A DNA stretch of 59,222 nucleotides from a virus. Taxonomy: Duplodnaviria > Caudoviricetes. Below are positions 17,307-57,315 of this stretch, piece by piece. How positions within the stretch are numbered: the stretch's first letter is position 1; every line of letters starts with the position of its first letter. Below the pieces are notes generated by a model. It made no database searches, had not been told where the DNA came from, and saw only the letters and a program-made list of their open reading frames with translations. The position numbers were made by a program, and so were the translations under genes. The stretch spans positions 1 through 59,222 of IMG/VR virus record IMGVR_UViG_3300043411_000192, one strand, 5' to 3'.

Positions 17307-17833
17307 TCACGCCTAAGGTAGATCCAAATGGAGTTAATGTCATTATAGGAACTCGACATTGGCTCGGCCCAGAGTGGCTACATGTCGATGCCGATAGAAG
17401 CCCACTCGTTGATGAGCATGGAAAACAACATGCTGTTGATGTGGTATGTGACGCTAGAAAACTAGACCTTCCAGATAGACATGCTGACTTCGTATTTAAT
17501 TCAGAGTGCCTAGAACACTTCCCTTGGAAAGACACATTTAATGTTCTAGCTGAATGGTGTAGGATTGTCAAGGTTGGTGGTGTCATTCGTGTAGAGGTTC
17601 CTGACTTCATCCTAGCTTGCCAGCAGGTTCTTGGGACTGACACTTTAGAGTGTGACTTAGCGATGAGACAGATTTTCTATGGTGGTCAGATTAATGAATA
17701 TGATTTTCATTACACAGGTATTACTCATAGAATGCTTCAGGCATGGCTAGAGGAATTAGACTTTGAGGTTATTAACCTTGAACGTGGTAATGAGTGTGGA
17801 TGGTTACGAGTAGACGGGAAACGCCTTAAGTGA
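17303..17833 (+). CDS. SAM-dependent methyltransferase (Methyltransf_11-like)
   Basis: WLHVD, CDARKL, ECLEH, and WCRIVKVGG.IRVEVPD. Confidence 0.82.
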   Translation: MITPKVDPNGVNVIIGTRHWLGPEWLHVDADRSPLVDEHGKQHAVDVVCDARKLDLPDRHADFVFNSECLEHFPWKDTFNVLAEWCRIVKVGGVIRVEVPDFILACQQVLGTDTLECDLAMRQIFYGGQINEYDFHYTGITHRMLQAWLEELDFEVINLERGNECGWLRVDGKRLK

Positions 17834-18411
17834 AATGGTCTATACTAATTCCTTCAATGCCAGATAGGAGAGAGCAACGACGTAGAGTTCTCATGCTTCT
17901 TGAGCCACAATTAGAGAAGTATGATGATATAGAGTTGCTTATCTTGGAAGACAACTGCAAAAGAAAGTATGGTCCGAAGCTACAGGCGATGGTGGATATT
18001 GCTCAGGGAGACTATATCTCATTTATTGATGACGATGATTTGGTATCTGAAAGGTATGTGGAATTAATCTATCCTCATCTCAATGGCACGGTTGACTGCG
18101 TTGGCTTTACTGGTCACATTTCCATTAACGACGGACCTATCATGCCTGTCTTTTATTCGATAAAAAATAAGACGCCAGAGAATAGATTTGATGGGTGCTA
18201 CAGATATGTCCAACATGTCAATCCTATCAAAAGATCTATAATACAACAGGTTCCATATGATGGGCATTTTGGTGCAGACACTGAGTGGTCAGATCAGGTA
18301 AGTGAGCTAAATCTCCTAAATGTAGAGGCTTATGTCCCAGAAGTTATGTATATGTATTTAGCTTCAACCACTGAAAATAGAGAGGTTTGGAACGATGGTC
18401 TTGGAGATTAA
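17830..18411 (+). CDS. GT2 glycosyltransferase
   Basis: WSILIPS, AQGDYISFIDDDD and GAD..W. Confidence 0.82.
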   Translation: MKWSILIPSMPDRREQRRRVLMLLEPQLEKYDDIELLILEDNCKRKYGPKLQAMVDIAQGDYISFIDDDDLVSERYVELIYPHLNGTVDCVGFTGHISINDGPIMPVFYSIKNKTPENRFDGCYRYVQHVNPIKRSIIQQVPYDGHFGADTEWSDQVSELNLLNVEAYVPEVMYMYLASTTENREVWNDGLGD

Positions 18412-19126: not shown

Positions 19127-19641
19127 CAAAGAAAGATAAGATACAGGCCAAGATTGATAAAGCTAAGGAAGCGAATCCTCATTTGCAGAATATAAACTGG
19201 GGAGAGATTCTTCAAAGAGAGCCTGATGTTTTAAACAACATTCTCGGTGATGTTGCTAGATCAGACACTAAACGAAGATCTAAAATAGATAGAAAAACTG
19301 GCACTCAAAAGCTACAGGCAATGTCTGGCACTGATCATTCAGAGAGAGAATTCAGATATGCATTCGCTTCGATATGTGGAAAAGAATCTTTTAGGAAGAC
19401 GGCGACCAAGTTAAATATCTCTGCTGCACATGTATATAATCTTAAAGAGGGCAAGGCTCAGCCTACGCTTGAACTCATGGAGAAGATAGCTGAAGTCTAT
19501 AATAGAAGACCTTCTTACTTCTTGGAATATAGAGTGGGAATGGTTTTGATGTCTATAGAGTCTTACCTTACAAGAAATCCAGAGACTGCTACTGTATGGT
19601 ATTCTAAAGTTCAATCCAATTCGGGGATTATTATCAAATGA
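19123..19641 (+). CDS. XRE-type HTH DNA-binding protein
   Basis: SFRKTATKLNISAAHVYNLKEGKAQPTLELMEKIAEVY. Confidence 0.75.
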   Translation: MTKKDKIQAKIDKAKEANPHLQNINWGEILQREPDVLNNILGDVARSDTKRRSKIDRKTGTQKLQAMSGTDHSEREFRYAFASICGKESFRKTATKLNISAAHVYNLKEGKAQPTLELMEKIAEVYNRRPSYFLEYRVGMVLMSIESYLTRNPETATVWYSKVQSNSGIIIK

Positions 19642-22352
19642 TTTATTCAGACTTATCCGAAGAAGAACTATGTCTATTCGTGCTGTTCACAGATGAGACT
19701 GGACTAGATCAAGCAGAGTTCTGTATGGTCGATGAGCGTAACAAGCAGACAGGTCTTTTCAGAGCTTGGCCTGTTCAGCAGTTCTGGTGGAGAAAGAAAT
19801 CAAAGAAGATTATTAGTCAAGGTAGTCGTTCTATTGGTAAGAGCCTCTCAGCTAAACTGAGAGCTTTTGCTTTCCCATTTGTGCATCCCGGTGGAGAGTT
19901 GGTTATCACCGCTCCTGAGGGTCTGCATTTGGATGCTTTGACTGACAATATCGAATCGTTGTACCTCAGAAATAGAATTGCTGAATCCATGCTTGCTAAG
20001 GATCAGCGAGGTAGAATTAAGCATAGACCTTTCCATATCAACTTCGCAAACGGTGGCCGTATTATGGCTCGTCTGCCTAAGTTTGACGGTTCGGGAGTGA
20101 GAGGGACGCATCCAGACTGGCTAATTCAAGATGAGTCTTGTTTTCCGGGTAATACTTTAGTTCTTACTTATCAAGGTTATAAGAAAATTAAAGATGTTGA
20201 AGTTGGTGATTTTGTCTTAACTCATAAAGGTAACTGGAAGAAAGTTCTTAATGTCATAGATAATGGTCTACGAGAAGTAATAGAGTTAAAAGGTCAAGGA
20301 CATTATGGGTTAAAAGTGACTTCTAATCATAGATTCTGGGCGCAGGAAGTTTTGGATTATAATGATAGAAAAAATAAGTGGGGTATTAAAAAGAAATCTG
20401 ATTTTAAGTGGATTCGTGCCGAACACATGGTTGACAATTTATGGTCCACTCCTACTGTAATTCCATATTTTGATATTCCAAAAAGTATTCAAGCTTCTAA
20501 TATCTCAACGAGCTATGAAATAGACATACTTTCAGATGATTTTCTTTGGTGTCTTGGTTTGTATATTGCCGAGGGATCGACCTCTAGTTCTTATGGGTCG
20601 GGCGGTAAGCTTAATAAGACCACATGGTCTGTTCATTCCAAAGAAGTTGAATTTGTAACTTCTAAGCTAACAGCTGCTGGTATCCACTGGTTTGTTCAAC
20701 CTGTTCAATCTAGCGAGAATTGTAAAAATATTGTTGTCACACATATTGATTTAGCAAGATTTATGAAAGAAAATTGTGGAACTAGTTGTTATGAAAAAGT
20801 AATTCCTCTTTGGGTTCATGCCCTAACCCCACATCAACGTCAAATGGTATATGATGGTTTAATTTATGGCGATGGCTGTGACATTAAGGATGATAGATAT
20901 AAAGAAGGTAATCAAGCTTTATCTACAACATCTAAGAAGTTGGCTTTCGATTTTCAGTTATTAGCTAGATCAATTGGAAGAACAGCATCATTAACATATT
21001 ATTCTGGTAATAAGGTTGGAATAATAAGAGGTAGAGAATTTATATCTAGTCCTTCGTATGATATAAGATCAAGATTACAAGGTCAAGGGATTAAAATAGA
21101 TGATAAAGTTCTTCATAAGGTTAAGTCTTCTAGAGATGCTGGCATTGAACGTGTTTATGATTTAACCGTTGAAGATGATCATTCATTTATAGCAGAGGGA
21201 ATTATAGTTCATAATTCATTCTATCCTGAGCCAGCTTGGAAAGAGTTGATTGAAACTCTAATCATTAATGACGATCCTGAGCACGATAACTCTAGATGGT
21301 TCTCCCACGGAGTAACCGTAGGTCCCGGTAATACTTTTGATGATAAGATTAGCGGTAAGGATAGTACATGGGAAGTGGTTCCTCTCCCTGCTATGTATAG
21401 ACCTAATTGGAGCGATAAGGAACGGCAGGATAAAATTATTGAATATGGTGGTGAGGATTCTCCTGACTATCGTAGAAATGTTAAGGGTCTATCGGCTAAC
21501 GCTGGTACACCTCTTCTTGTAATGCATAGGCTTATGGAAGCAGTTGATTCTGATGAAATGTCTGCTTACAACCTAGAAGAATATTCTATCTGTAATATCA
21601 ACGATGCTCAGGTCCGAGAAGTTGGAAGTATATTGGACTTGTTCGATCCGCCAATCTCCCATACTAAGTATGGCAAGGTATGGATTGGAATGGATTATGG
21701 TCTAACCACATCTAACTCCTGTTTAGTAATATTTGCAGAGACTAAAGAGAAGGGTGACGACCACGGACGATTAAGATTACTGTCAAAGATAACATTAACT
21801 CGTATCCCGACTGAGGATCAGGTTGCTCTTATTAAACATATCATGGAGATATATAGACCTACAGCTTTCGTATTTGATGCTCACGGTATCGGACAGCCAG
21901 CCTACGACTGGTTACAGAAAGAAGTAAGAGAAGACGAAAATGTTGCCTGGATGCTTGACAGAATCAAGGGATACTCATTCTCTAAGAAGATGATAGTCCA
22001 GTTCGATCCTAACATAGAAATCTCTGAAGACGATCCAGATGGCTGGAAGGCTGCGGCTATAGAGCGCCTAGGATCTGAGGCTTCTATTGATTCACTCAGA
22101 TTAATGGTTGATAGTCACAGACTGAGACTGCCATATGACAAGGATCTTATCGGAGAACTACAGGCTGTCCAAAGAAAAGAGCCAGTTCGTTTCGATGAGT
22201 ATGGTAAACCAAAGAGAAAACAGGGTCAGCACACGCTCGACGCTATTAGATTTGCCCTTCTTGGATACAATCAGCATGTAATCGAGGAGATTGTGAAATC
22301 TTATGAGGATAGTTGGTCACCTCCTGAGATGATCATAATGGATTACATTTAG
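19638..22352 (+). CDS. terL: Terminase large subunit; contains an intein
   Basis: Walker A GSRSIGKS, Walker B LIQDE, nuclease IGMDYG, DAHGIG and HTLDAIRF. Confidence 0.9.
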   Translation: MIYSDLSEEELCLFVLFTDETGLDQAEFCMVDERNKQTGLFRAWPVQQFWWRKKSKKIISQGSRSIGKSLSAKLRAFAFPFVHPGGELVITAPEGLHLDALTDNIESLYLRNRIAESMLAKDQRGRIKHRPFHINFANGGRIMARLPKFDGSGVRGTHPDWLIQDESCFPGNTLVLTYQGYKKIKDVEVGDFVLTHKGNWKKVLNVIDNGLREVIELKGQGHYGLKVTSNHRFWAQEVLDYNDRKNKWGIKKKSDFKWIRAEHMVDNLWSTPTVIPYFDIPKSIQASNISTSYEIDILSDDFLWCLGLYIAEGSTSSSYGSGGKLNKTTWSVHSKEVEFVTSKLTAAGIHWFVQPVQSSENCKNIVVTHIDLARFMKENCGTSCYEKVIPLWVHALTPHQRQMVYDGLIYGDGCDIKDDRYKEGNQALSTTSKKLAFDFQLLARSIGRTASLTYYSGNKVGIIRGREFISSPSYDIRSRLQGQGIKIDDKVLHKVKSSRDAGIERVYDLTVEDDHSFIAEGIIVHNSFYPEPAWKELIETLIINDDPEHDNSRWFSHGVTVGPGNTFDDKISGKDSTWEVVPLPAMYRPNWSDKERQDKIIEYGGEDSPDYRRNVKGLSANAGTPLLVMHRLMEAVDSDEMSAYNLEEYSICNINDAQVREVGSILDLFDPPISHTKYGKVWIGMDYGLTTSNSCLVIFAETKEKGDDHGRLRLLSKITLTRIPTEDQVALIKHIMEIYRPTAFVFDAHGIGQPAYDWLQKEVREDENVAWMLDRIKGYSFSKKMIVQFDPNIEISEDDPDGWKAAAIERLGSEASIDSLRLMVDSHRLRLPYDKDLIGELQAVQRKEPVRFDEYGKPKRKQGQHTLDAIRFALLGYNQHVIEEIVKSYEDSWSPPEMIIMDYI
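20139..21215 (+). mobile_element. Intein (359 aa) with LAGLIDADG domain, in TerL
   Basis: Starts CFPGNTLVLT; block B VTSNHRF; motifs LGLYIAEG and DGLIYGDG; ends VYDLTVEDDHSFIAEGIIVHN/S. Confidence 0.93.
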
Positions 22353-22687: not shown

Positions 22688-24382
22688 ATGGAAGCTTCAG
22701 AACTTGGTATCGACTTAGAGATACTAGATGAATTAGAAGAGGGCGGAACTATTCTGCTCGACAACCAGTCTGGGCTTCCTGACGATGCTGTCCAAGAGGC
22801 GATTGAGAGACAGTATCCTGAACTTATCTCTAGAGCGGACATTTCTAAGCTAGACGAATGGATCGGTCGATCAACTGGACGCCAACGTGCTGGTGGTATC
22901 TTCAGCCAGAATAAGTATGTTGCCCCAGAGAAGATCTTCGATCAGTTCAGGGCGGCAGCTAAAGCTGCGAGAGATGATGATATTTTCTCCAATGCCGTAG
23001 AGACAACAGAACAACTTGCTTTCAAGGCAGTTACTATTGAGTCCAAGTCCAATGAAGAAGATGAGTCTAGTATCTGGGATCAGATCAAAGACAATATGAA
23101 GCTAGAGCAGAAGATGAGAGAAATTTGGCGTGAGCTTTTTGTTCTCTCTCAGTGCTACGTTGCTACTATCTGGGAGCGTAAAGACTTTAAGGTTAAGGGT
23201 ACAACAGATACGGGTAAGAAGAAAAAGAAAGTCTATAAGAGCCTGTTGGTCCCCAAGGGGCTTACCATCCTCGACCCATGCAAGGTTATCCCTGTTGGTA
23301 ACTTCATGTTTGGCCAGGAAAGACTTATCTACATTGCTGATCCCTTTGAATCTAAAGAACTTCAGACTACTTTAGCTGGACCAAATAGTTCTGATCTTGT
23401 AGTGAGTCAGCTTATCGAAGACCAGTATATCCCAGACATCCAAGAGGAAATGGAGCTTGGCAGAATCACTGGACAGTATGGTTTAAGAGATAGACTCTTC
23501 CTACTCAAAGAAGACAATGTTTGGCGTATTACATCAACACGTCCAGACTACCAGCGATTTGCTGACGTTCGTGCAATGTCAGTATTCCCTTGGTTGGATA
23601 TGAAGCATAACCTTCAGGAGATGGATCGTACAGATATCCTTGGTAACCTGAACGCTATCATCCTTGTTAAGAAGGGTACAGATGACAAGCCAGCTAAGCC
23701 TGGAGAAATCGCCCAGGCTGGTGCTCAGGTTCAACAGTCATCTCGTATTCCTATTATTGTATCAGACCACCGTTTAGAGATTGAGATTATCACTCGTAAG
23801 ACAGATAAGACTCTAGCTGCTGAAAGGTACAACGCTATCGACTCTAGAGTCACAGCGAGACTTTTCCAGATTCTACAGACTGGTAACTATGCCGCTGGTA
23901 CAGCTACAGATACTTCAGGTGGTCTATTCAAGATCATCGCTTCTACTATGGAAGCCCGTCGTGACAATATTGCTGATTCTATTATGGCTCATGTAATGAA
24001 TAAGACCTTTGAAAGAAATGATCAACTAATAGGTGAGCCAGTTCTTAAGATGCGTAGAATCGCTCTTGACTTCGATCCTCACTTTGCTCAATACATGCTT
24101 GATCTGTTTGCTCTTAACCAAATCTCTCAATCTACTGTTCTTGCAGAGGTTGACGTTGATATAGCTGATGAGGTTATCAAGAAACGTAGAGAGAAGGAAC
24201 TTTACTCTGATGTCTTCAGTCCTCCGATTGCTCCCGGTACTGCCGTGCCCGGAGAGGGTAATAACTCCACAGGTAGCCCTGGATCAGATGGTCGTGTTGG
24301 TGGAGGTAACTCAAATGGTGGCGGAAGTAACCAGCAATCATTTAACTCTACACCGAAAACTGGCAAAGGTGACGACAAATAA
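22688..24382 (+). CDS. Portal protein
   Basis: 564 aa after TerL and before protease/scaffold/capsid; Gly-rich C-terminal tail. Based on synteny and size. Confidence 0.75.
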   Translation: MEASELGIDLEILDELEEGGTILLDNQSGLPDDAVQEAIERQYPELISRADISKLDEWIGRSTGRQRAGGIFSQNKYVAPEKIFDQFRAAAKAARDDDIFSNAVETTEQLAFKAVTIESKSNEEDESSIWDQIKDNMKLEQKMREIWRELFVLSQCYVATIWERKDFKVKGTTDTGKKKKKVYKSLLVPKGLTILDPCKVIPVGNFMFGQERLIYIADPFESKELQTTLAGPNSSDLVVSQLIEDQYIPDIQEEMELGRITGQYGLRDRLFLLKEDNVWRITSTRPDYQRFADVRAMSVFPWLDMKHNLQEMDRTDILGNLNAIILVKKGTDDKPAKPGEIAQAGAQVQQSSRIPIIVSDHRLEIEIITRKTDKTLAAERYNAIDSRVTARLFQILQTGNYAAGTATDTSGGLFKIIASTMEARRDNIADSIMAHVMNKTFERNDQLIGEPVLKMRRIALDFDPHFAQYMLDLFALNQISQSTVLAEVDVDIADEVIKKRREKELYSDVFSPPIAPGTAVPGEGNNSTGSPGSDGRVGGGNSNGGGSNQQSFNSTPKTGKGDDK

Positions 24383-30140: not shown

Positions 30141-30524
30141 ATGAAACCTGTTAAACAGAACCTTGAAATTTGGCAAGGTAAAACATATGAAGAACCTTTT
30201 ACTTTTGGTCGTGCTGTTAAAAATGAAGCAGGTGAATTGGTAGATATTATTGCAACTAATCTTTCTGGCTACACAGGCAGAATGCAACTTCGTACATCAA
30301 TTGATTCTGAAGATGTTGTTATTGAATTAACAACAGAAAATGACCGCATTATCATTGACGCAGACAATGGTATTGTCACTCTATATATCAGCGATGAAGA
30401 TACGGCCCTTTTGCCTGTTGGTTCATACAAATACGACCTAGAGCTTATCACTGCTTCTGGTCGTGTTTATGGTCCTCTGTACGGTACTGTAAAAGTCAAG
30501 GCCGAGGTGACACGCGATGCCTAG
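30141..30524 (+). CDS. Ig-like fibre-anchoring protein (BppU N-terminal-like)
   Basis: L.I.QG.T...LSGYT.RMQLR...G...L.I....T..L..G.YKYDLEL...G.V; precedes the collagen fibre gene. Confidence 0.6.
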
Positions 30525-32226
30525 TTATATCCAAGATGAAGATAATGATATCATTCTTCTTGGTGAAGAGGTTGTTGAAACACAAGTTCTTTCTGACGAT
30601 AGTGGCGATAGCTTTGTTATCCAAGTTGGCATACAGGGTCCTGAAGGTTCTCAGGGGGTTACGGGTCCTACTGGACCACAGGGAATTCCTGGTCCTACCG
30701 GAGCTACTGGTCCAACTGCTGCAACTGGACCTACTGGTCCTCAGGGAACGACTGGACCTATTGGTGAGCAGGGATTTACAGGTTCTACGGGTCCTGTAGC
30801 TTCTACGGGTCCTACCGGCCCGCAGGGTAACACTGGTAGCACCGGACCTACTGGTGAGACTGGTCCTATTGGTTTGACCGGCAGCACAGGGCCACAAGGT
30901 ATTACTGGTGCTACTGGCGTACAAGGTTTAGTAGGTGGCACAGGCTCTACTGGCCCTGTTGCTGCTACTGGGCCTACGGGACCGCAGGGCTTAACTGGAG
31001 CTACTGGCGCAACTGGTTTAACTGGCGTTCAGGGTTTCACCGGCCCTCAAGGTGAAACTGGGCCGGTTGGCCTAACTGGATCTACTGGCCCAGAAGGACC
31101 AACAGGCGCTACAGGTCCAGCGGGTAGTGATGCAACCGTACAAGGCGCTACTGGCCCAACCGGTCCAGTGGGTGCTAGCGGAACTATTGGTATTGATGGC
31201 TTTACCGGTGCCACTGGTCCAGCAGGCGTAGATGGCGCTACTGGCGCTACAGGGCCTGCTGGTACGGATGGGGAAATGAAGTCCGTTAAAGCTGCTACAA
31301 CTGCGAATATTACTCTGTCGGGCACGCAGACAATTGATGGTGTGGCGCTGTCGGTAGACGATCTTGTGCTTGTAAAGAATCAAGTGACTACGGCAGATAA
31401 TGGTGTTTATGCTGTTAAGTCTGGGGCTTGGGTAGAAGAATCATGGTCTACAGCTAATGTTGTTGTTGCAGTTGATCAGGGCGCAGTTAATGGTGGAAAT
31501 CTTTACACTAACCTCGTGAGCACAACTCCATTGGAGCGCAACTTCTCTGGTGATCAAATTACTACTGGCACTATTCCTGCTGGAGTTATTCCCGATCTTG
31601 ATGCTGCTAAGATTACTACTGGCGAACTAAATCCTCTTGTTTTACCAAGAAAGCTCATGTACGCTAACACGGGTGGTGTGTTCGCTGCGAACACCGCATG
31701 GGGTAGACATTCACCACTAACTTGTCTAGTTCTCCAGAGCGCTGCTATGAATGCCTCGCAAGCTACTTATGCTGTGTGGTATCCATTTTTTATCCCCCGC
31801 CAAACTGCTGTGACCTTGAGTTTAAGCTGTGCAACGTTGCAGGCAAGTAGTTTTATTCGGGTTGCCATGTTCTCTGCCGATGAGGGCACCTTGCTGCCGG
31901 TAGCCAGAACTGAAGACGTTGGTACGGTTTCTGGTGCATCTACTGGCACAAAACAAATTACCACTGCTGGTACCTATCAAGGTCTTGTCTATGTTGCTCT
32001 GTGGTTGAGTAATCATGCGACTGTTCGTTGGATAAGGCTGGCAGCAGATAGTTCTGCTATGAATCCATTTGGTAGTGCGGGCACAAACGCCAGAATCCCC
32101 TATGGCTGGATTGCGACGGGCTTGGACTATTCAGCTTCATGGCCTGCCGGTTCACCACCAGCTCTTACGCTAGCTAATCATGCGGATCACCTTAATGGTC
32201 CGGCTGTATGGATGGAGTGGGCATGA
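30517..32226 (+). CDS. Collagen-like fibre protein (G-X-T/G-X-Q repeats) with C-terminal beta-sandwich domain
   Basis: About 70 GXY triplets (GPT/GAT/GST), then [20 protein letters not shown] and a C-terminal domain. Confidence 0.8.
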
Positions 32227-36345: not shown

Positions 36346-37656
36346 ATGACAACGTATATAGTGACACAAGGAATTCAAGGTCCAGAGGGTGCTCAGGGGC
36401 CTGCTGGCGCTACTGGTCCTGATTCCACTGTTCCCGGTCCTACCGGCGCTCAGGGGGCTACTGGTGCGGGCGCTACGGGTCCTCAGGGTCCAACTGGACC
36501 AGAGGGGGCAACTGGCCCACAGGGCGCTTCCGGTGTTGGTGCTCAAGGATTCACCGGCCCGCAGGGAGCTACGGGTGCATCTGGAGAAAATGGTTTAGCC
36601 GGTTCTACTGGCGCTACGGGTCCACAGGGGGCGACTGGTGTGACCGATCACGGGCTGTTGACCGGGCTGTCCGACGACGACCACACCCAGTACGCGAAGA
36701 AGGCATCGAACCTGTCAGACCTCGCCTCGGCCGCGACGGCACGAACCAACCTTGGTTTGGGCACGGCGGCGGTGGCTGCGACCGGGGACTTCGACGCCGC
36801 AGGCACGGCGGCAGGACTGGTTGATGACCTGTCGGGTGTGTCGAACCAGGCGACCGCCCGCGCGAACCTCGGACTCGGTACCGCGGCGACGGCGGCGACT
36901 GGCGACTTTGCTGCTGCGTCGCACACGCACACCGGTACTCAGGTCACGGTCGATGCGTCGGGGTTCAACGGCAACCTCACCACATCGGACGACACGTTGC
37001 AGGAGGTCGCGCAGAAACTCGACGACCTCGCGGTTGGTGGGTCGGAGACGTTGGCTGCGTCGATCATCGACGCCAAAGGCGACCTCATCGTCGGCACAGC
37101 GAACGACACTGCGGGACGCCTGCCTGTGTCCGCGACGAACGGCGCTGTCCTCGTTTCGGATTCCGCTGCGAGCACCGGGTTGAACTGGGCGGTCGACCCG
37201 TTCATCGTCACGCTGCCTGGCGCGAGCCCGACGCTCCTCGCTGCGATCGCCAACTACGCCTTCGCGATGCGGGTGTTCGGTGCCGGGACCATCTCGAAGG
37301 TCGCCCTGCAGATCGGCACGTCGTCGGGCAACATCTGCGTCGGCGTCTACTCGAACACTGGTGTCGGTTACAACGCCACCCCGAACGCCCGCCTCGCCAC
37401 GTCCGGTTCGGTGGCGTGCCCGTCCACCGGCTACCAAGAAGTCGCTCTTGGGTCGTCGGTTGAGGTGCGAACCGGTGACTGGCTTGTCGTCGCGTTCGAC
37501 AACGCCAGCGCCACGTTCTACGGCGTCGCAGCACCAGGGTCAGGGTTGGCGAACAACGGCCTGGTCCGCACCGCGAACTCGTCGTTCCCGCTGCCCACCA
37601 CGTTCACCGCGCTCAGCAGCCATGATCGCTCGGTGCGCCTGTGGGGAATTCCGTGA
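36346..37656 (+). CDS. Collagen-like fibre protein
   Basis: GXY repeats, [23 protein letters not shown] repeats, [10 protein letters not shown] and a C-terminal beta-sandwich. Confidence 0.8.
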
Positions 37657-40870: not shown

Positions 40871-41701
40871 TTGTTATATGTTTATGGTCTACTAGATCCT
40901 GAGACAAAAATAATAAGGTATGTAGGCCAGACTAATAAACTTCAGAAAAGATTGAACGATCATATCTCTGAAGCTAAGTACAGTTCAAAATTTAACAGAA
41001 AGAATAATTGGATTAGGTTTTTATTAAAGAATAACTTAAAACCTGAAATGATAGTTCTGGAAGAATTTAAAGATAGATATTCTTGTAATAAAGGTGAAGT
41101 ATTTCATATTTCTCAATTACTAGATTGTGGCTTCGATTTAACAAATGCGACTTCTGGCGGTGATAGTTTTTATACTAGGTCGGCAGAGTCAATCCAAAGA
41201 GCTTCTAATTCTAAACTGGGTAAGAAACTCTCTGAAGAGACAAAGCATAAAATGAAAGAGTCTGCTAAAAGAAGAATTAACCCTGATGAAATAGAAAGAT
41301 TAAGATCTATATCAAATGGAACTCCACCAAACTTTAAAGGTGAAGAAGTCTTAAATTCAAAACTCAAGGAAAAAGATGTCATCTGCATAAGAAGACAATT
41401 AAATTCTGGTTTTAGATTAACAGATATCTGTAAAGAATTTCCAAATATATCTGTTTCCACAATTCATAATGCAGCAATAGGTAAAACTTGGGCGCATGTG
41501 AATGAACCATTTTTTAAGCCACGGAAAGCGGTTAAATTAACTAAAGAAAATGTTATAGAAATTAGGTCGTTGTTAAACGAAAATATTTCTCAAACTGAAA
41601 TTGCCATTAGGTATAGTATAGATCCTTCAACCGTTTCTAATATCAAAACTGGCAAAAGACGTAAAAACGTAAAATCTACTGTTACTAAAACAGTCTCATA
41701 A
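40871..41701 (+). mobile_element. Free-standing GIY-YIG homing endonuclease with NUMOD3-like and HTH DNA-binding modules
   Basis: YVYGL...IRYVGQT...KRL..H, LTN...GG, GKKLSEETKHKM and C-terminal HTHs; very AT-rich. Confidence 0.85.
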
Positions 41702-43072: not shown

Positions 43073-43339
43073 ATGGGTGCTCATTCCTGGGGTTGCAGAA
43101 ACCTATATAGAACTAAGAAAACAAATTATAATAAACCTTATCTAGTGTATCGAAAAGATTATTGTGAAAATCTTGAATGCACAGCAACTATAGTTGACAA
43201 ATGTCAACTTGATGTTCATCATATAGATGGTGATCATTTAAACAATGATATAGAAAATTTACAAACTTTATGTTCTAATTGTCATCGGCTGGTGACTAAA
43301 CTAAATATGGAATATGTTAATAAGATTTATCACCCCTAG
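43073..43339 (+). CDS. Small HNH endonuclease
   Basis: C....C...LDVHHIDGDHLNN..ENLQTLCSNCH. Confidence 0.85.
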   Translation: MGAHSWGCRNLYRTKKTNYNKPYLVYRKDYCENLECTATIVDKCQLDVHHIDGDHLNNDIENLQTLCSNCHRLVTKLNMEYVNKIYHP

Positions 43340-44606: not shown

Positions 44607-47600
44607 ATGGCTAATAATAAAGTTATGATTGATCTATTAGTAAACCCCAAGACCGCTAAGGCTGGGTTGAATGAGCTTGAATCATACCTCAATAAGCTTC
44701 AACGTAGTGCCGGTGGAAGTAGCACCGCTAAAGTAGCCCAGCTACCTCGTGAAGCGAAATCTCGCCTACTTGACACAAAACAGGTTGTCAATGGTAAAGA
44801 TACTGCCGAGCTAAAGAAGCAAGAGCAACTGCTTATGCGTATGGCTCGTGAGCGTGGTAAGCTTCTAGGTCTTGCACAGGCTGAGCTTACTGTTGCAGCT
44901 AAGGCTGCTGGAAAACAAGCTTCTTCTATTGAAGTTGGAAAACTAAAGAAAGTATCTTCTGCGGCCTTTGCTACTAGCTTAGGTCTAGATGCGTTGCCTG
45001 TTGCTATTCAGAAGGAATTTGACAAGGTAGCTCAACAGACACGTCTTGCTGTAAATAAGGCTGTTGGTAAACTCTCTGGCGTAGCTGCTCAGAAAGAATT
45101 TAGAACACAGTCAAACCAAATACTAAATGAAGTTGGCGTAACCAAGCCAACTCGTGTTCGTTCGGCTGCTCGTGTTGCGGCAGAGACTCCACGCAGAGTA
45201 GCTGGAACTCCTACCCCTCAGCAAGAGCGCCCTAAAAAGGTTCGCTCTGCTAAGCCTCTAGACACGTCTACAAGCGATTCTAGAACCCAGAAGGCAGCGG
45301 ACTCCAACGCCAAAGATGCAGAGCGTTCAGCGGCCTCTCAGAAGGCTTCACGTCAACGTTCAGATAAGGCTCTCGCTGCCAAAGCTGCATCCGATGAGAG
45401 GGCAGCTAAACTCTCTTCCCAGAGAGAAAAGTCAGGCGAGAGGGCTGCCAAAAAAGCAGAAGCAGGCTTGGGTACAACCTCTAAGGTTGAGTCACCAAAA
45501 TGGCGTGGGAATTTTCCAAAGGAACAAGTTGCAGCGGCTCAAAAGAATGCAGAAAAGCTTTTAGCTACCAGAATTCCGGTTGATGCTCTTGATGATGTTT
45601 TAAAGAATGGTCTTAAGACTCAGTTTGAAGACATCAGAACTCAGGGTGGTAACAGTAAAGGTGCAAGAGATAGAACCGAATCTTTCTGGGGTGTTCCAAA
45701 AGATGCTCGACCAGATCAAAGACCAAAGTATGGTTTCCTTGCAGACAAGAAGGGTCTTTCAAAAACTTCTGGTTATGGACAGGTTCTTTTAAATCTTGAA
45801 CTTGATCCTGGTCAAGTCTCCGTTACTCTTGGAGACTCTGGTTCAGATGTTCCTTCGGATGTAGTATCTCTTAAGGACTTTAAAGAAAAAGAATATGATG
45901 ACCTAGCAAGATATTCCAACCCAAGAGATGACTATATTGAAACGCAGATGCGTGGAAATATTGGCAGAGAACAAATTAAGTCTGTTGAGTTTCTGCCTGA
46001 GGCAATGGCAACTAAGGCTGATTTAAATAAACTTCTTGATGTAGCTGATGTTGCCAATCGTGCCGGTCTTCCACTTAAGGTTACACAACAGCCAGGAGAT
46101 ATTCTAGAGCCAGCCCAAAACACTCAACAAAGATTGAGTGGGGTTGTTGAGGCATTAAAGGCTAAAGGTCTAGATATTGAGCTAACTCCTCTTAATGAAG
46201 CCGTTGAAAGATTCGGAACTAAGCTTAAGTCAGTTACCGATCTTCCTTCAAAGGCTTTAGCTCCTATTTATGCAGAAGACGCAGCAAAGATTCCTTCACA
46301 AGTTGAAGGTTTTCAAAAGGACATTGATCAAGATACTAGATTCTCCAAGGCTAAAGAAGCTGAAGAGGTTAAACAGGTAGCTGCTGAAAAAAGAGTCACA
46401 AAAGCTACGGAAAAAGAAGCACAGATTCTTGCAGCTAAAACATCTGCTGCTGCACAAGCTCCTGCACAAACTGCTGCACCACAACAGTCTCTTATCCCAG
46501 AACAACGTCCAGTTAAAGATATCAATGCTGAGACTATGGCAAAGCTCAAAGCTTTGCAAGACGAGTATCTACAGACTTGGAAAAAGAAAGTAATACTTGA
46601 AAGAGCTGGCCAGGAAAGTCGCAACAAAGTTTACCAAATTGAAAAGCAAATAGAGGTAACAAAAGATCAAGAGCGTATTACAGCATTGAAGGCTCTTCGT
46701 TCTAGAGAGCAGTCTATTCAAAAGAGCATTACCGCTGAGTCCCGAAAAGTTGGCGATGCAATCGATTCAATAAGAGAAGAAGCCTTTACTCTCCCTGACA
46801 TTGATCAGTCAGAAAAGTTTATGTCAAATTACCCGGCCAGAGAAATTTTCCAGAGTCAGGCTGGGACGCTTGAAAGAAAAGCAAGAGAACAATTAGAACA
46901 AGAGGCTGGCTTAACTAAGGGAGTTAAGACTAATTTTGATGCTGAAATAGAAGCAGAACTTAAGAAGCAACTAGGTGACGAAAAAACTCTAACTAATCTG
47001 ACTGAAACTGAAGTTAGTATCCGTCGTAGATCAGTAGGTTCTGAACTTGCTACAACTAAAGCAAGCAGAAGACGAGCAGAAGCTCTTAAGGTTGATGAGG
47101 TTATTCCTCCAACTCCACGTAGAGCTGATATTGTTCCAACCGCTCCACCACCAGTTATTGAAGCTCAAAGCGTAACTAAAGCTGAGAAGCGTAGAATCGT
47201 TCAGGGTCGTGGACAGGAAAGAGCAGACTACTTCGCTAGAGGAAGTCGTGGCGTTGATCCTATCGTTGTTGATGGTGAAGAACGTAAGGCTCTAGAGGCT
47301 AAAACCAGAGAGCGTGTAGCTTCAGAAACTCAGGCCGATGTAGCCACTCGTGGTGCTGCAAGCCTACAACAACTAGAGGCACTAGAAGCTGCCGAAGCCG
47401 CTAAGCAACTCGCTGCTGAGCGTCAAATCACTGCTGTCGTAGAACAAGAAGCTATCGACAGAAAAACATTCTACAGCCGTGGTGGCAGAACCCGTGCTGA
47501 AACAAACGCTGCTGAACGTGAACGCCGTGCTGGTGTTCGTGCTGACCAGGGTGACTACGTTAAGGATCTAGAAGATCAGTATGGTCCTCAGGTAGTCAAA

Positions 47601-50600
47601 GAAGCTAAGGTTCGCCGTAAGGCTGAGTTCCCAGATTTTAGACAGGGACTCCAACAACAACTAGATGACGTAACAGAAGATTTCATCAAGACATATTCTG
47701 GTGGTCTTCGTGGTGATGTCGAAAAGGTTAATCCAAGAACGAACAAGAAGTATAAAGTTCGTGAAGATCCACTAGGAGAGGTTAGAAGAACCGTACAGGA
47801 TGGTCTTGCTCATACTCTAGGTGCTGAATATGATTTCATTAAAAGTGACCTTATAGAAGCTTACGCTCCCGCTCCTGGCCGTAAGGGCGTTAAGTCTGAT
47901 CGTCTAAGATTATTTGAAAAGTATTCTAAAGAATTCTCTATTGGTCTTGAATCATTTGGTGATCCTCTTCTAGATAGCCTTAATCCAGAAGATATGATGC
48001 AGCAACTGCAACAGATCGAAACTCTTCGTCAACAGGTGCGGGCACCCAATAAAGCCCAGCCCGATCTTGGAACATATGCAGCACGTATTGAGCAGGAAAA
48101 AGCTGACATTGCAGACCAGCAACAAAAGGCACGTCTTGCTGAAGCAGAGAAGCGTCAGCGTGCATATGAAAATGATGACCGTCAAGCTCGTCGTAGTGAC
48201 GACACAGAGCGTAGAGCTATTAGAGATATCCCAGATGCACCTGTCCGCAAGGGTGGAGCATTTGACGATGCTGAATCCAGATCACTTCTTGCTGCTGCTA
48301 ATAGCCAGATGGCAGAAGAGTGGACCGAGCAGGTAGCCTACGAAAGAGTCACTACTGCTGCTGTTAAATCTGTTGCTGATACGCAGCAGACAAGAGCCGT
48401 TCTCAATAAGAAGATCACTGCTGCACAAGCTAAAGCTCTGGACATCATCAATACAACTCCCGGTATTACTTCAGACGAACTGAGAAACCGTGGAGTTAGA
48501 TCATCGACTCTTACTTCGCTACAGGAGAAAGGTCTAGTTTCTAGATCCGGTGAACAATATAACACAACCAACATTGCTGACGATGAAGACGGATTAGTAA
48601 GTGCGCTACAGCGTAAGATCCGAGCACTGAATGCTCAGGCTACTGTTCTCGAAAATAAGCTTACTCCATTCACTGTTGCGGAGAATGAGCTTATTAAGGC
48701 TCTTCACAATAAAGCTAATGCTCTTAATAACCAGACTGCTGCTTCTAAGAAGTCTAATCCTTTCGATGCCCCAGAGCCTTCTAAGAAGTCTAAGAGAGGT
48801 TCATCTGGTGATGAAGATTCTGAGCCACGCAAGCAACCAGACGGAATACCATTCCCTAATGTAAATGAAGACTTCGATCCTGAAGATGGATGGAATGCTA
48901 CTCAGGCTGCGATGCAGAAGGTTAACGCTGCATGGATGCAACAGGCTACTCTTCTAGAGCTTTACAACACTGAAATCCAGCCACTTATGGCACAGCAGTT
49001 TGCTGCATATCAGGCTGTTACGCTAGCTCTTACTAAACAACTAGCTGGCGCTACGATGATGGACATCGCCAATGACCCCAATGGTCTTGGTGCGATGTAT
49101 GCTCAGGGATTAACTGATACAAGAATCGCTGATACTGAGCTAAGAGGATTAAGTGCAGAACAAATTGCTGGCGACCCGGCTACAGCTAAGAGACTGATTG
49201 AGGCTGAGGGTAAGCTTGCTGGTCTAACCAACGAGGAAGCCACACGAAGAGCCGAGCATATTCTTAAGTCTCCACAGCTTCTTAAGTCAGAGATAGAACT
49301 GATTCTTGTTAACCAGAAGGTTGCTGCTGCCCGTGCTGCCCTTCTGAATAGTCCACAGTTCAGAGACAACTATATTGGTTCAAAGGTAGCCGAGAGAGCA
49401 CCTAAGTTTGTTCTTGATACAGACGTACAGGCTGCACTAGGTGACCGTGAAGATGTCAAAGATGCTAGAGCACGCCGTCGTGTTCAAAACAATACTGCTC
49501 GTGCAGAAACTACACGCCGTGTTCAGAATGATCCCGCTCTTGCTAGTGAGGATCTAGCTGCTGCTGTATCTCTACATCTTTCAAGAGTTCAGTCTTCATC
49601 TGCTAAGTGGCTACAGATTGCAAGCTACTCTTCTGTAATTGCTACTGATGCGGCAGAGGAAAAGGCTGCTAGAGATAAACTAACTAAAGCTATCAACGAT
49701 GAATACTTCATGCGTAAAGCTTCTAATGAAGGTTTAACTCCAAATGCAGCAACGGGTCGAGGTCTAGCAGACGTAGAGAAGCTAGAAGAAAAAGCAGGCA
49801 CAAGAAGTGCCATTGCTGATGATGATACCCTAGAGGCTCGTTACGTTCGCTCTCAGGTAGATTTAATTGAAGCTAACAACAAGCTTGCTGCGAAGGTTGA
49901 AGCTCTAGCTGCTAGCACTCCTTCAATTCTACAGTCAAGACTTGAAAAAGTTACCGCTCAAAGAACTTCTAAGATTGATCTTGAAGAGGCTTATCTTGCA
50001 ACCCCAGAAGGTCAAGATGAAGTCCGTCGTCGTGCTGCTCTAAACCAGCAACGTAGACAGCTTACTGGCACAACAAGAGAAACACCTTACCAGAAGGCAA
50101 AGGCTAACCCCGGAGAATTCTTCGGTGGCGGTGCGCTATCATCTCTACGTTACGGTCTGCCATCAATGCTTCTTTACGGAGCCGGTTCTGGTCTAATGAA
50201 CACAATCAGGGAAGCTGAGGAACTACAGGTTGCTCTAGCTAAACTTGAAAGTCAGTTCAATGCTGTATTCCAGGGACAGGATTTCGCTCCTGTTCGTCAA
50301 CAGATTCTTGACGTAGCCCAGGATACTGGTCTTGCTGCCGATGAGATTGCCAACCTACAAATTCAGATTACTGGTGCGTTCTCCGGTAAGGATACCAAGG
50401 GTAAGCAGATCTCAATTGGTGGAGACTCTGGACAGGTTCTAGTTGAAAAGCAAGTTGCTTCTGCCGCTAAGCTAGCACAGACTGTAGGTCTACCTCTTGC
50501 AGAAATCACTGACGGTTTAACTGCTGCCTCTCTAGCTTTCGATACTAGCTTTGAGAAGATCGGTGACGTTGCCCTAGCGATTGAGCAAGAGTCTGGTGTG

Positions 50601-53600
50601 CTTGCTAAGGAAACAATTTCCTTCATCGGTGACATCGCCCCTGTAGCCCAGGAGGCTGGTTACTCTCTAGAAGAATTCGCTTCTATCGCTGCGGTTGCCC
50701 AGCAAAGATCGGGTCGTTCTGGTGCTGCCCTAGCTGAGTCATTCGGTCGTGTGATCCCAGCTATTACAGAACAGAAAGATAAGCTATTAGAATTAGCTTC
50801 CATCGCTCCATCTCTAGGAGGCGATGAGTTTGTTGACGCTATCCGTAGCTCTGATCCAAAGGCTATCCTTGATGCTATTGGTAGATCATATGCTGGATTG
50901 AATAAAGAGGCCCAGCAAACAATCGTCACTCTACTAGGTGGTCGTCGTGAGGCTCAGGCTCTTATCCCTGCTCTAGCTAACCAGGGTCTAACAGACAGAC
51001 TAGAAGACGTTGCGAAGAACAGTGCCGGAACTCTAGATGAGCGTTTCCAGAAGATTAAGACAACAATCACTAACACTCTACAGCGTATCACCGAGCTTGT
51101 TCGTCAAGTTGGTGTTGAGCTTCTAGAGGCTGGTTTCGCTGATGCGTTCTTGAATGCTCTTAAGGGAGCCAAGCTGTTCCTTAACATCCTTACTCCTGTT
51201 GCGAAGATCATCTCAACAATCAATGACGCATTTGGCGGGCTTCCTGTTCAGATCCTACTAGGTGTTGCTGCTCTTAAGGTAATGCAGGCTCTTCTTACAA
51301 AGACTGCTGCCGATGGAACAACTTCACTTATCGGTGGTAGAGTTACAAACTCTATCTTTGGTCCACAAGGATTACTACAGAACGCTACTGCCGGCTACAG
51401 CGGTGGATTCAAGAATAACTTCCGTCAAGGAGTATTACAGTCTAGAGGAATCTCCCCAACTTCTGCCGCAGGGCAGAGCTTAAGAACATCTTCTCTTCTT
51501 GGTTCTGCTGGTCTTGGTGGTGGGATCAAGGCCACTGGCCGTGGCGCTCTTTCTGTCCTTGGAGGTGGCTCAGTTGCCCTGGGTGCTGGCTTCGTAGGCA
51601 TTACTGCACTAGCCGCTCTATACGGTAAGGTAAATTCTGAGATTGATAAGTCTGAAGCGCAACTACAAGAACTTCGTGACGAAATTGAGCAGGGTAATGA
51701 AAACATTGATCTGGAAGATGTAGATCTACGCAGTGATAGAATTGCAGATCTTACAGCAAGAGCGGAATCTGAAAGTAAAAGAGTTGAAGAATGGTATGAG
51801 GGCTGGAATGGATTCCTGATCCAGCTTGGCGTTGTGCAAAGTAAGGCTGAGATTCTAGCAACTGAAGCACAGGTGCTGGAGAACTTCGATACTAAGACTA
51901 ATGAATTTTTCCAGTATGCAGATACCACAACACTAAAGGCCACTAGTGAATTAGTAAGACCAAAACTTGGAAGACCAACTGGAAACTTCAGAGATGCAAT
52001 AACTGGATCTGGTGGTATCTTTGGAAGTGAAGGAACTAAAAAGTTCGTTTACGATAAAGAGGGAGAGATACGTCGGGACACGAGTGAAACTGGGGCTGAA
52101 GCTAACCAGATTAAGCTTAAAGAAGATGAACAGCGTTTTATTGAAGAATCAGCTCGTTTAGCTGGAGTTAAAGTTCCAGAACTTGATCCAAGAATTGTAT
52201 CTCTATTACTCGACCCCGGTAATAACCCAGGTGAATTAATCAAAGAAGCTGCTGAGGGGAATGGTAAATATGCAGAGTATGGAGAGAAATTCGTTGAGCA
52301 GGCAGGTGTAGTAAGAAAAGCATTTGCTGACGCTGGGTATAGCGATAAGGAAATTGCTAACTTTATTGAGTCAGCTAAAGGAACTGACCTTAGCCCAATT
52401 GAGGCTAATGCTCTTAATCTTGAACAGATTAAGGCAGCATTTGACGTGGGCGTTATCTCCTTCGATGAGTATGCAAGAAGACTACGAGAGAAACTAGATC
52501 AGCGTAGACAGATTCTAGCTTCTGGGGATCAGACCGAGGCTTCAGAACTTGAAATGCTTCAGGTGGCTCAGCAAGAAGCTGAACTAAACAAGCAACTCTC
52601 TGAATCTGTTCTTGCTGGTCAGGAACGACTACAGGCTATTGACGATGCATATGGAACTGGACAGAACAATACTGATGCCAGAACCCTTATGGTCAACCTT
52701 GATAACCTTAACAACCCTAACTTCCAAGATAAAGATCTAAGATTACAAGCTGCTCTTAATGTTATTGAAGCGCAGAAGAGAATTGATATTGACCTTGCTT
52801 TGGCGACTGGGAGTATTGATGAGGTGCTTAAGGTCCTTAACGAGGGAAGCAAAGTTAATGCTACTGCTAGATCCGTAATAGCCTTTAACCAACTAGAGCA
52901 AAGTCAAACATTCAAGGATGCTAGGGGCGAGCTAATAAAGGCATTCCGATACCTATTTGATTTAGATGTCACCAGCGCCGATATTGACAAGTTCTATCAA
53001 ACAATCTTCACAGATGTTTTCGATGATGGTGCTCTAAATGCTGAGAACTCTGCGAACCTTCAGACCCGCCTAGATGATGTTATTGGTCAGATTAATGCTA
53101 AGGGATTTGATCCAGATTCTGACGCTGGTGAAGCTGCTCTTACAGCATTCGATTCTTTCATTCAGCTTCTTAACTTCTCAGGAGTCAGTAGAGAGAAACT
53201 TCTAGAGGCTCTAAAGAGAAATAGCCAGTATGCTAACATGACACCAGAACAGCTAAATGCTGAACTGGATGCAATACTAAGCGCACAAATTCTGCCAGAC
53301 CCAGCGGCAGTAGCTAAGGCAAATAGAGATACTGCACTAGGTGATATCAATGATGCCTTCACTCCAAGTAGAACTAGTGCTGAAAGTAATTCTGTAGCTC
53401 AGGCTCTTTATGCTAAGCAGCAAGCTGATGCTGAACTAGCTTACTTAAAGGACCCCAAGAATGGTGCCACTCAAAAAGAAATCAATGACGCTATCCAGAA
53501 GCAACAAGAAGCAGAGAATGAATTAGCTGCCGCTTTCGCAAGTGCAGCTAGCTCTATGTTTGATCTTGCAGCTACTGAACAAAGAATCGCTGGTGATATA

Positions 53601-55329: not shown

Positions 55330-57315
55330 ATGAGTTGGCCCCCATTTGGATATCCATTTACAGACGGCGTTAAAGACGTAGAAGCTGCTGACGTTAATGA
55401 TATTGTTTCTCAGCTTGTTGCCCACTTGGCTGATGTTACTAGCGTTCATGGCATTACCGATACTGGTAATCTTGTTACTTTTTCTGGCGGTGGAGATTTA
55501 GAAGAACTAGCTGAAGACATTGTTGCTGCTATGTTCTCTTCAGGAACGCACACAGGGCTGTCTGTTAGCTACAATGATACTACTGGGGCACTGAGCTTAA
55601 CTGTTACAGGAACGGGCGCCACTGGGCCACAGGGGCCACCTGGGGCTACTGGTCCACAAGGCTTCACTGGTTCTCCCGGCGCTAGTGTTCAAGGTGCTAC
55701 TGGTGCTGGTGTAACAGGCGCAACAGGACCTATTGGTAATACTGGTGTACACGGATTTACTGGACCTACTGGTGAAACCGGTCCTCAGGGTTCAACTGGT
55801 GCTACTGGCGCTCCCGGTAGTCCCGGTGGTGCTTCTGGTCCAACCGGCCCAACTGGTGTCCAAGGGGCTACTGGCGCTCAAGGTACGACAGGTACAGCAG
55901 GTACAGATGGCGCTACAGGTGCTACTGGACCGATTACCGATCTAACTCCTTCGGACGCTTGGTCTGGCTCAAGCGTATCGTACAGTGTTGGCGATGTTGT
56001 TATGTATATTTCGGTTTCGCCACCATTTACTATTAGCACTTGGTATTGCTACAACGCTCACACTTCTAGTGGTACTAACTTCCCAACTATAAGTGGTGAC
56101 GGTGCTGCTTATTGGACAGCTTTATCTACACATGCCCCCGGCGCTACAGGTTCCACGGGACCAGTAGGTGCTTCGGGTTCACCCGGCGGCGCAACAGGAC
56201 CAACTGGTCCCGTCGGTTCTACAGGTTCTCCTGGTGGCGCTACCGGGGCTACAGGACCCGGTGGCGGAGCTGCTGGCTTTGTTTATAACTCGGCTCTTAC
56301 TCCAAGTGACAATGTATTCGATGACTGGTCCACTTTAATGACTGCAATCTCAACTATCGAGAACCCAGTTGAAATCTTTATTCAGCAATCTGAGGTTATT
56401 CCATCAGGCACTTGGGATCTTACTAATGTAACTATCACTGGTATGTTTGATTTCACAGGCACTCCAGCAACAACGGCTTTGCTCTGCGAGGATGGCGCAG
56501 TTATAACAGGCAACCACATCACTCTTCGTAATATGACTTTGCAAACAGAGTCAACAGACTACGTTTATGTTGTTAGTGGCTACGCTTACTGGTACCTAGA
56601 TGGGGCAACAATCCAGTCTTCTGGTGATCCTTTCTTCCATGTTCCGCTAGCAGATATTCTAGTAGTAAATGTAGATAGACTATATAGCGATACCGCAGGT
56701 TTTAAGTCTGAGGGATCATTCAACCAACCTGTTCTTGAAATTAATGGAACAGCAGGATTTAACTTGGGTGATAAGACTATCATTGACACCGATACTGTGA
56801 TTGGTGATGGCTTCTTAGCAATAATTTGTTCAGAAACAGGCACAGCTTCGTTGGGGGAGCAAAATACTTACACCGGAACCTTTGACTTTGATGCACATGA
56901 ATCAAACCCAGGTATGTCTCAGTTCATTACTAAAGATATGTTGAGAGTTACATATCCACTAACAACTAACAACATTGAAACCGCAGCAGGTACAGATGCT
57001 GTGCTTACGGTTACGGGTTCTCAAGCCGCAGGTAAGATCACTATTCTGGCTGGTACGGCTTCTCTTTCTGCTGGACTACAGGCTTCGATCACTCAGGCTA
57101 ACTGGTTCCAATGGGGGCCACAGATGGTAGATACATTTACAGATGTGGATATTGCTGTAACGTTAACTCCTGCCAACGCAGCGGCAGCAGACTTCACAGG
57201 TGTATACGTCACAACAACTGCTGGGTGGATGGAGATTAGAACTACAGCAGCATTCACAGCGGAAGAAACATATGAATGGTATTACCAAGTAATTGATAGT
57301 AGCGGCTGGGTGTAA
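55330..57315 (+). CDS. Collagen-like minor tail/fibre protein
   Basis: Two G-X-T collagen blocks flanking a small W...SY.VGDVV module, followed by a beta-rich C-terminus. Confidence 0.78.

Follow-up and report, generated by a model that had tools for sequence, protein, structure and literature searches.

A SopF-like ADP-ribosyltransferase-fold domain in an exchangeable cassette of a giant phage tape measure protein

We analysed a virus record of 59,222 bases from an uncultured freshwater/wastewater phage (IMGVR_UViG_3300043411_000192, estimated to be 52% complete; the whole stretch is called the window below), in which one long open reading frame (ORF) encodes a giant tape measure protein (TMP) of 3435 aa, and we found that the N-terminal part of this protein holds, in frame, a domain with the fold of an ADP-ribosyltransferase (ART) that is related to the Salmonella effector SopF. 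We propose that it is a SopF-like ART in an exchangeable cassette of the TMP, active and delivered to the host at infection, and we put the probability of this reading at about 0.45, that is, somewhat short of even odds. What we infer, from the behaviour of TMPs, is that the domain is catalytically active, is part of the virion and enters the cell, and what it acts on. Coordinates of the features are collected in Table 1, and residue numbers are those of the TMP.

A preliminary description, made from the letters of the window only, had placed a globular island at 45564-45995 and compared it with DUF3626 and with NAD-dependent ARTs. This interval, on the plus strand, translates without stops to exactly the 144 residues that had been quoted, which are aa 320-463 of the uninterrupted 3435-aa ORF, and the motifs named there (QFE, RPKYG, YG, GDS and YIETQ) are all present and fall on the most conserved columns of an 85-domain alignment. 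From 1.84 billion representatives, a phmmer search with aa 290-570 recovered 62 proteins at E<=1e-3, one of which was a fragment of the same phage, while the best of the others reached E 2.7e-20 at 32% identity. The matches of these proteins covered query residues ~10-240, mostly 25-176, with some extending to ~200-237 (local re-run), and many of the long homologous proteins had two or three copies of the domain. The conserved pieces of the 85-domain alignment were K-x-Q-F-E, R...E...G-x-P, R-P-[IV]-Y-G, Y-G, R-T-T-x-T-x-G-D-S and Y-x-E-A-Q-x-H-G-G. One more helix and one more strand were included in both the AlphaFold2 (AF2) model and the family alignment, so we set the extent of the domain at aa ~316-495; the globular island is a real conserved domain, which runs further than the preliminary description had it.

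The relation to DUF3626 stood up by transitive and by profile homology, and a direct Pfam match was the part that failed. Of the 20 best homologues, 18 carried the Pfam family PF12294 above cut-off, and for 12 of these 18 the best PF12294 stretch on record fell within the part that phmmer had aligned with the island. An alignment of the island with 27 stand-alone homologues (28 members, 25 of them carrying PF12294; hereafter A1) was used as a profile against 177,635 PDB sequences, and it found SopF (7DN8, E 5.7e-10; 7DN9, E 1.5e-8; profile positions 118-231) and, apart from SopF, nothing below E 0.4. DUF3626 is a domain of Salmonella SopF, residues 178-338 (PMC6682159), and SopF is an ADP-ribosyltransferase with the structures 7DN8 and 7DN9 (PMC10333799). 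The homology searches therefore support the island as a divergent member of the DUF3626/SopF branch of the ART superfamily, lying below the Pfam threshold. The direct searches gave little: NCBIfam had nothing for the island, PHROGs had only phrog_8314 (E 0.035, without a stretch of its own), single-sequence phmmer of the island against PDB sequences had no more than one row at the level of chance (E 2.3), and tblastn of the island against 50,697 phage records gave no match. For other ART families, PF03496 (Alt/VIP2-type R-S-E ARTs) gave no match, and the motifs of the island are of the Y-Y-E type, as in SopF.

The active site was examined in the alignment of the A1 profile with SopF. Y375, Y390 and E445 of the TMP align with Y224, Y240 and E325 of SopF, which means that all three NAD-contact residues are kept; in the NAD-bound entry 7DN9, D stands in place of the Glu that matches E445. 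In SopF, E325 touches the N-ribose of NAD+ and Y224 and Y240 touch the nicotinamide, alanine mutants of the three residues largely lose activity, and the printed primers locate them in RPIY, SAYGK and YIEAH motifs (PMC11937434); SopF has also been described in a review with an ‘I-Y-E’ triad (PMC10333799). The island also retains the family residue at 20 other columns with a conservation of about 80% or more among the 85 domains, and the residues retained include G335, K337, Q339, F340, E341, G347, R354, E358 and G362 as well as R372, P373, G376, G391, D410, S411, Y443, Q447 and G450.

The fold was assessed on an AF2 model of the island built on A1 (predicted local distance difference test, pLDDT, 81.1; predicted template modelling score, pTM, 0.80). 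Foldseek gave two matches only at E<=1e-3, Mycobacterium tuberculosis DarT (7yk3, E 4.9e-4) and SopF (7dn9, E 7.5e-4). With VIA-align, the model matched DarT 7omy with Z 11.2 (root-mean-square deviation, rmsd, 3.4; 163 residues aligned), SopF 7dn8 with Z 9.8 (rmsd 3.9; 172 aligned, 17% identity, SopF residues 124-374) and Tpt1 with Z 9.7 (rmsd 3.3; 107 aligned). A Foldseek-independent search of 48,161 chains returned six at Z>=8, namely four DarT chains, Tpt1 and SopF, and ART-superfamily proteins made up almost all of its best 50 rows. The ART fold suggested in the preliminary description was thus recovered by all three fold searches, and the modelling supports an ART fold for the island.

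The carrier of the domain is, by family models above their curated cut-offs, a TP901-type TMP. On the segment aa 1831-2330, TIGR01760 (tape_meas_TP901) scored 47.7 bits against a cut-off of 28.8 (aa 1857-2226) and PF10145 (PhageMin_Tail) 43.9 bits against 33.2 (aa 1897-2110), in agreement with the earlier estimate of about 1800 aa ahead of the core. When all 3435 aa were scanned together, neither Pfam nor PHROGs nor NCBIfam gave a significant match and the core, which passes in a 500-aa segment, was missed, so the domain content of long, compositionally biased proteins of this kind is under-reported in precomputed annotations. Collagen-like tail fibre genes at 30517-32226, 36346-37656 and 55330-57315 flank the ORF and place it in a tail gene block, and its immediate neighbours had no family match in the scans. 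When the core-containing aa 1840-2640 were used as query, 60 other giant proteins (1890-4125 aa) with the same core were found in a search that covered proteins of 1889-6012 aa only. Among 50,697 phage records, the TMP core and the ORF at 22688-24382 matched one record only, the metagenome-assembled ‘Caudovirales GX15bay’. A TMP exits the tail at infection and takes part in the passage of the genome across the inner membrane (PMC13190303).

Comparison with relatives showed that the domain lies in a cassette. In a related TMP of 3375 aa (P0067), aa 1-253 were 98% identical and the sequence from aa 586 on was 90% identical, whereas 265 unrelated residues stood in place of aa 254-585. A second IMG/VR contig (L002) encodes a 3667-aa TMP whose island is 100% identical over 281 query residues (aa 290-570). 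At the DNA level, the window and L002 had 43 mismatches in the 759 positions of the first 253 codons of the TMP (5.7%) against 1/996 in the cassette (0.1%) and 0/540 in the domain, and their last cluster of differences ended at 45338-45392, which is the breakpoint seen with P0067. The stretch 45200-46600 was present at at least half of the sampled words in 18 runs (20 rows from 11 studies, one of them possibly the source), which were freshwater, wastewater and activated-sludge metagenomes. Contigs of four runs were compared with the window, two of them called X2 and X4 here. The X2 contig had 0 differences to the window over 45051-46391, while its flanks differed by 3.7% and 6.7%, and the X4 contig spanned 44400-46576 and so bridged the cassette junctions. 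No RNA run was listed among those with the stretch. Two runs guessed to be RNA gave short contigs over parts of the stretch with adapter-like loose ends, and these were not taken as expression. Thus a cassette that is near-identical in diverged backbones, replaced in P0067 and bridged in independent runs points to its recent exchange between diverged backbones.

Behind the cassette, a helical low-complexity segment of 202 aa (aa 606-807) corresponds to 434 other residues in L002 (4656-5957), part of which recurs in P0067, and the X2 and X4 contigs have replaced or diverged sequence at 46422-47027. No Pfam family was found in this segment, either in the window or in L002, and its variable length accounts for total TMP lengths of 3375, 3435 and 3667 aa among close relatives. 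For DNA direct repeats at the cassette boundaries, only short, low-identity families were found. A 20-residue A/E/K-rich motif stands at the downstream boundary (aa 585-604, 46359-46418) and again at aa 929-948 (47391-47450); its score of 53 was marginal against a maximum of 51 in 30 local shuffles, and it could be a junction motif or chance.

Table 1 Features of the TMP and of its SopF-like domain
Feature	Position in the window	Strand	Basis
Giant TMP ORF, 3435 aa	44607..54914	+	Single open frame; core found in segment scan; core common to 60 related giant TMPs
Conserved N-terminal segment, aa 1-253, ahead of the cargo slot	44607..45365	+	Matches the extreme N-terminus of 13/60 related TMPs
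In-frame cassette, aa 254-585, holding the ART-fold domain	45366..46361	+	Replacement in P0067; divergence pattern with L002 and X2
DUF3626/SopF-like ART-fold domain, aa ~316-495	45552..46091	+	62 homologues, SopF profile match, AF2 model, DarT/SopF fold matches
Y375 (RPKYG), equivalent of SopF Y224, predicted nicotinamide contact	45729..45731	+	Y in 82/84 domains
Y390 (YG motif), equivalent of SopF Y240	45774..45776	+	Y in 84/84 domains
E445 (YIETQ), equivalent of SopF catalytic Glu E325	45939..45941	+	E in 82/83 domains
Length-variable helical segment, aa 606-807, downstream of the cassette	46422..47027	+	Other sequence in L002, X2 and X4
Tape measure core, aa 1857-2226	50175..51284	+	TIGR01760 47.7 bits; PF10145 43.9 bits

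Codon use sets the island slightly apart from the rest of the ORF. The preliminary description had noted Leu codons mostly of the CTT/TTA kind in the island and a CTA-rich core, and the counts agreed, although the effect was modest: in aa 316-495, CTT+TTA made up 18/20 and CTA 1/20 of the Leu codons, compared with 147/305 and 114/305 in the rest of the ORF (Fisher p 2.8e-4 and 2.7e-3), and CTA accounted for 23/48 Leu codons of the TMP core. Across 109 sliding windows of 180 codons, the four top CTT+TTA shares (0.79-0.89) all overlapped the island, and the next was 0.77. The GC content at third codon positions (GC3) was 0.24 in the island and 0.29-0.37 in five other parts of the ORF measured; it was among the eight lowest sliding windows, but not the lowest.

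The earlier suggestion that relatives be surveyed for swapped cargo also gave a positive answer, both in the P0067 replacement and in the sister TMPs. GNAT domains were found in 4 of the 60 related TMPs (P0070-P0073) and Arr-ms-like domains, of the rifampin-ART family and so different from the island, in three (P0090, P0093 and P0101), all in the pre-core extension, and P0101 also had a HhH domain; the Pfam scan behind these counts covered 14 of the 60 relatives as whole proteins, which is insensitive for such sequences. Three of these inserts lay at aa ~316-573, directly after the N-terminal segment. The pre-core part of the related TMPs ranged from 404 to 2464 aa (sd 484) and the post-core part from 794 to 1492 aa (sd 144), where some entries may be truncated at the 5′ end and so affect the pre-core lengths. 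Different pieces of the extension of the window TMP were common to different subsets of relatives. Within this extension of 1850 aa, one enzyme-like domain and a winged helix were recognised. The latter is a MarR/MotA-like domain at aa ~1269-1321 (48411-48569), whose blocks had pLDDT 73-89 in an AF2 model and were flanked by long helices; Foldseek matched it weakly but consistently, first to the T4 MotA activation domain (E 7.5e-3) and next to MarR family proteins, and aa 1250-1330 were common to 11/60 related TMPs. An ESM Atlas search with aa 985-1140 gave no usable match.

Outside this TMP family, the domain was found in proteins of another kind. The closest homologues of the island have 850-3745 aa and 1-3 copies of the domain, next to MuF, ADPrib_exo_Tox, GNAT, PolyA_pol, HeH and ATLF-like peptidase domains, and ParB fusions also occur among the phage polyvalent or head-ejection proteins with the same domain. 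In BFVD, 19 viral structures matched at E<=1e-3, including a Nodularia phage ‘DUF3626 domain-containing protein’, a ‘minor capsid protein’ of an uncultured siphovirus, and proteins of Bacillus phages SP-15 and CP-51, Mycobacterium phage Larenn and several giant eukaryotic viruses. Run against 68 other DUF3626-bearing proteins, a family-specific TMP-core hidden Markov model (HMM), which represents this TMP family only, detected the core in none (best E 0.15), and a search of long proteins with the domain returned seven, none with a TMP family on record. A full-text literature search, with most subscription journals outside its scope, found no published TMP-borne SopF-like ART; the literature naming DUF3626 did not concern phages, and PF12294 was not found named. 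Of the papers naming both a TMP and an ADP-ribosyltransferase, none did so in its title or abstract, and one had the ART fused to MuF and not to the TMP; among papers pairing tape measure with polyvalent protein or with embedded or injected effector, none was on TMP cargo by title or abstract.

According to our proposal, the ART domain would be translated within the TMP and assembled with it into the tail, which it would leave together with the TMP when infection begins. Close to or at the point of entry, it would then ADP-ribosylate a host protein with NAD+ as donor, for early takeover or for counter-defence. As NAD+ is found in the cytoplasm, the domain would need to get there or to the cytoplasmic side of the membrane. 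Related phages, in this reading, exchange such modules (GNAT, Arr-like ART, SopF-like ART) by recombination.

A number of results weigh against an active and delivered enzyme. Scanned at E<=1, neither the whole protein nor aa 320-463 matched PF12294, and aa 310-498 had no match to it at E<=0.01. Four residues that are near-invariant in the family are replaced, which weakens the step from fold to active enzyme: the island has Q at the R403 column (R in 81/84 domains, Q in 0 others), R at H449 (H in 71/83, R in 1 other), N at G451 (G in 76/83, N in 0 others) and Q at D456 (D in 79/83, Q in 0 others). SopF is without the R403 equivalent but keeps those of H449 and D456, and K precedes Y375 in the island where the family has I or V and SopF has I. 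The AF2 alignment was made of family members, so the model is expected to take the family fold. A family HMM search of 61 related TMPs found the domain in one only, that of the window itself, and L002 also carries it; being confined to these two of the TMPs compared, it is dispensable for the lineage. Pfam scans of the whole TMP and of its segments found no peptidase domain, and a folded domain of ~20 kDa would have to be accommodated in or on the tail.

Of the other explanations, the one that fares best, although we regard it as rather unlikely, is that the ART fold is no transferase here and has a binding role, with NAD+, ADP-ribose or a host protein as ligand, or is a structural insert tolerated in a variable part of the TMP. 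The replacements R403Q, H449R, G451N and D456Q, a sequence too divergent for the Pfam model and the lack of the domain in 60/61 related TMPs would all fit this explanation. Against them stand the three residues that are needed in SopF by mutation, all kept, and the 20 more conserved columns, including Q339, E341, R354, E358, R372, P373, D410, S411 and Q447. On the same side, SopF is active despite missing an R403 equivalent, and the near-identical cassette persists in runs of 11 studies, one possibly the source.

A bolder form of our proposal, which we would call improbable as it stands, takes the whole pre-core extension as a dedicated, fast-evolving payload slot, in which co-circulating phages swap enzyme modules (SopF-like ART, Arr-like ART, GNAT) by recombination on short time-scales and the SopF-like module acts at the membrane entry site. 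The target would be a host factor of the membrane or of the injection stage: candidates are a SNIPE-like defence nuclease that senses TMPs and, as the bacterial equivalent of what SopF modifies in the V-ATPase, the proteolipid ring of ATP synthase. If this were true, the tape measure would be a tail-borne counterpart of the head-borne polyvalent effectors.

It is about equally improbable that the domain is an active enzyme that modifies nucleic acid in the manner of DarT, either host DNA, which would stop replication, or the entering DNA of the phage itself, which would mask it from nucleases. DarT gave the best structural matches (Z 10.4-11.2), tied with or slightly above SopF (9.5-9.8) and Tpt1 (9.7), and the same TMP has a winged helix and one relative a HhH DNA-binding domain. 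However, Z differences of less than ~1.5 leave DarT, SopF and Tpt1 nearly tied, and the sequence homology is to SopF/DUF3626, whose one characterised member modifies a protein side chain (PMC10333799). The likeness to DarT is one of fold alone, with 8-12% identity in the aligned rows, no match of the TMP to the DarT family of Pfam at E<=1 and no DarG-like macrodomain among the neighbour genes scanned; moreover, DarT is a host defence toxin (the DNA ADP-ribosyltransferase of the DarTG toxin-antitoxin system) and not a component of a phage virion.

We give similarly little weight to the possibility that the N-terminal extension is not delivered at all, being cleaved off in tail assembly or acting late in the producing cell, with the ruler starting nearer the core. 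Pre-core lengths of 404-2464 aa beside a far more constant post-core length would fit a part that is free of the ruler constraint, and TMP processing is known in some phages. On the other side, the frame from the cassette to the core is free of stops, shows no internal gene start that can be recognised and contains no peptidase domain, and the same domain family is fused elsewhere to virion-delivery anchors such as MuF, which points to delivery. Finally, an assembly chimera or a chance resemblance, conceivable for a metagenome-derived record estimated to be 52% complete, is refuted by the copy in the 3667-aa TMP of L002, by the contigs of other runs that bridge both junctions and by phmmer E-values that reach 2.7e-20.

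Our preferred reading, a delivered SopF-like enzyme, can be set beside several known systems. Cell-wall hydrolase motifs embedded in TMPs (mycobacteriophage TM4-type, T5 pb2) are presumed to act on entry, and to our knowledge the known enzymatic inserts of TMPs are cell-wall hydrolases. They share with the present case an enzymatic module in frame inside the TMP, but they act on peptidoglycan outside the membrane, whereas the island has an NAD-dependent transferase fold. With SopF, the island shares the family at profile level, the fold and the three NAD-contact residues, and both would ride on an injection device. SopF differs in being a free-standing 374-aa effector of the Salmonella type III secretion system (PMC6682159), its N-terminal part (to ~residue 123) is outside the aligned range, and its H and D are not found in the island (H449R, D456Q), which has K where SopF has I. 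The activators of SopF are eukaryotic ARF GTPases and its substrate is ATP6V0C, a subunit of the V-ATPase (PMC10333799), and a bacterial host has neither of them.

The polyvalent proteins of phages and plasmids and the MuF-fused effectors are the proteins to which the closest homologues belong, and the logic would be the same, an enzyme delivered with the DNA. The pairing of GNAT and ART noted by Iyer et al. (2017; PMC5512222) recurs among the sister TMPs. The carrier here is a TMP and not a head or conjugation protein, and the term ‘tape measure’ is absent from the main text of that paper; the ART family described in it is H-Y-D (Tox-ART-HYD2), which does not appear to fit the island motifs. 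Alt of phage T4 is a virion-packed ART of the R-S-E (Alt/VIP2) clade that is carried in the head and injected with the DNA (PMC5512222). Since both the ART clade and the carrier, head or tail, are different, its comparison with the island is an analogy only. The present case would combine a SopF-family ART with virion-delivered effectors, two kinds that are already known.

Other parts of the window had features of their own. It carries an unusual load of inteins and LAGLIDADG endonuclease domains (7136-9967; 3788-5671, minus strand; 19638-22352; 883-2703): the ribonucleotide reductase large subunit is split by a LAGLIDADG-bearing intein, two more ORFs have intein or Hint matches, and an M15 peptidase ORF contains a LAGLIDADG domain. 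Free-standing homing/HNH endonuclease genes lie at 40871-41701 and 43073-43339, in the tail gene block just upstream of the TMP, and the latter is also present in L002. The region 13379-18411 holds at least four glycosyltransferase family 2 genes, an RmlD-like reductase and two or three methyltransferases, which suggests a sugar-modification cluster. There were no tRNA genes in the window.

If our proposal is right, a NAD-dependent protein modifier of the cytoplasmic type on a TMP would extend the idea of polyvalent effectors from the head to the tail, and phages would have a means of bringing in ready counter-defence or takeover enzymes, which would work ahead of all phage gene expression. 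A testable role would also follow for the phage branch of the SopF family, which is large and uncharacterised. The occurrence of nearly the same cassette in diverged backbones suggests that such payloads move quickly between phages, which bears on the arms races between phages and their hosts in wastewater and freshwater.

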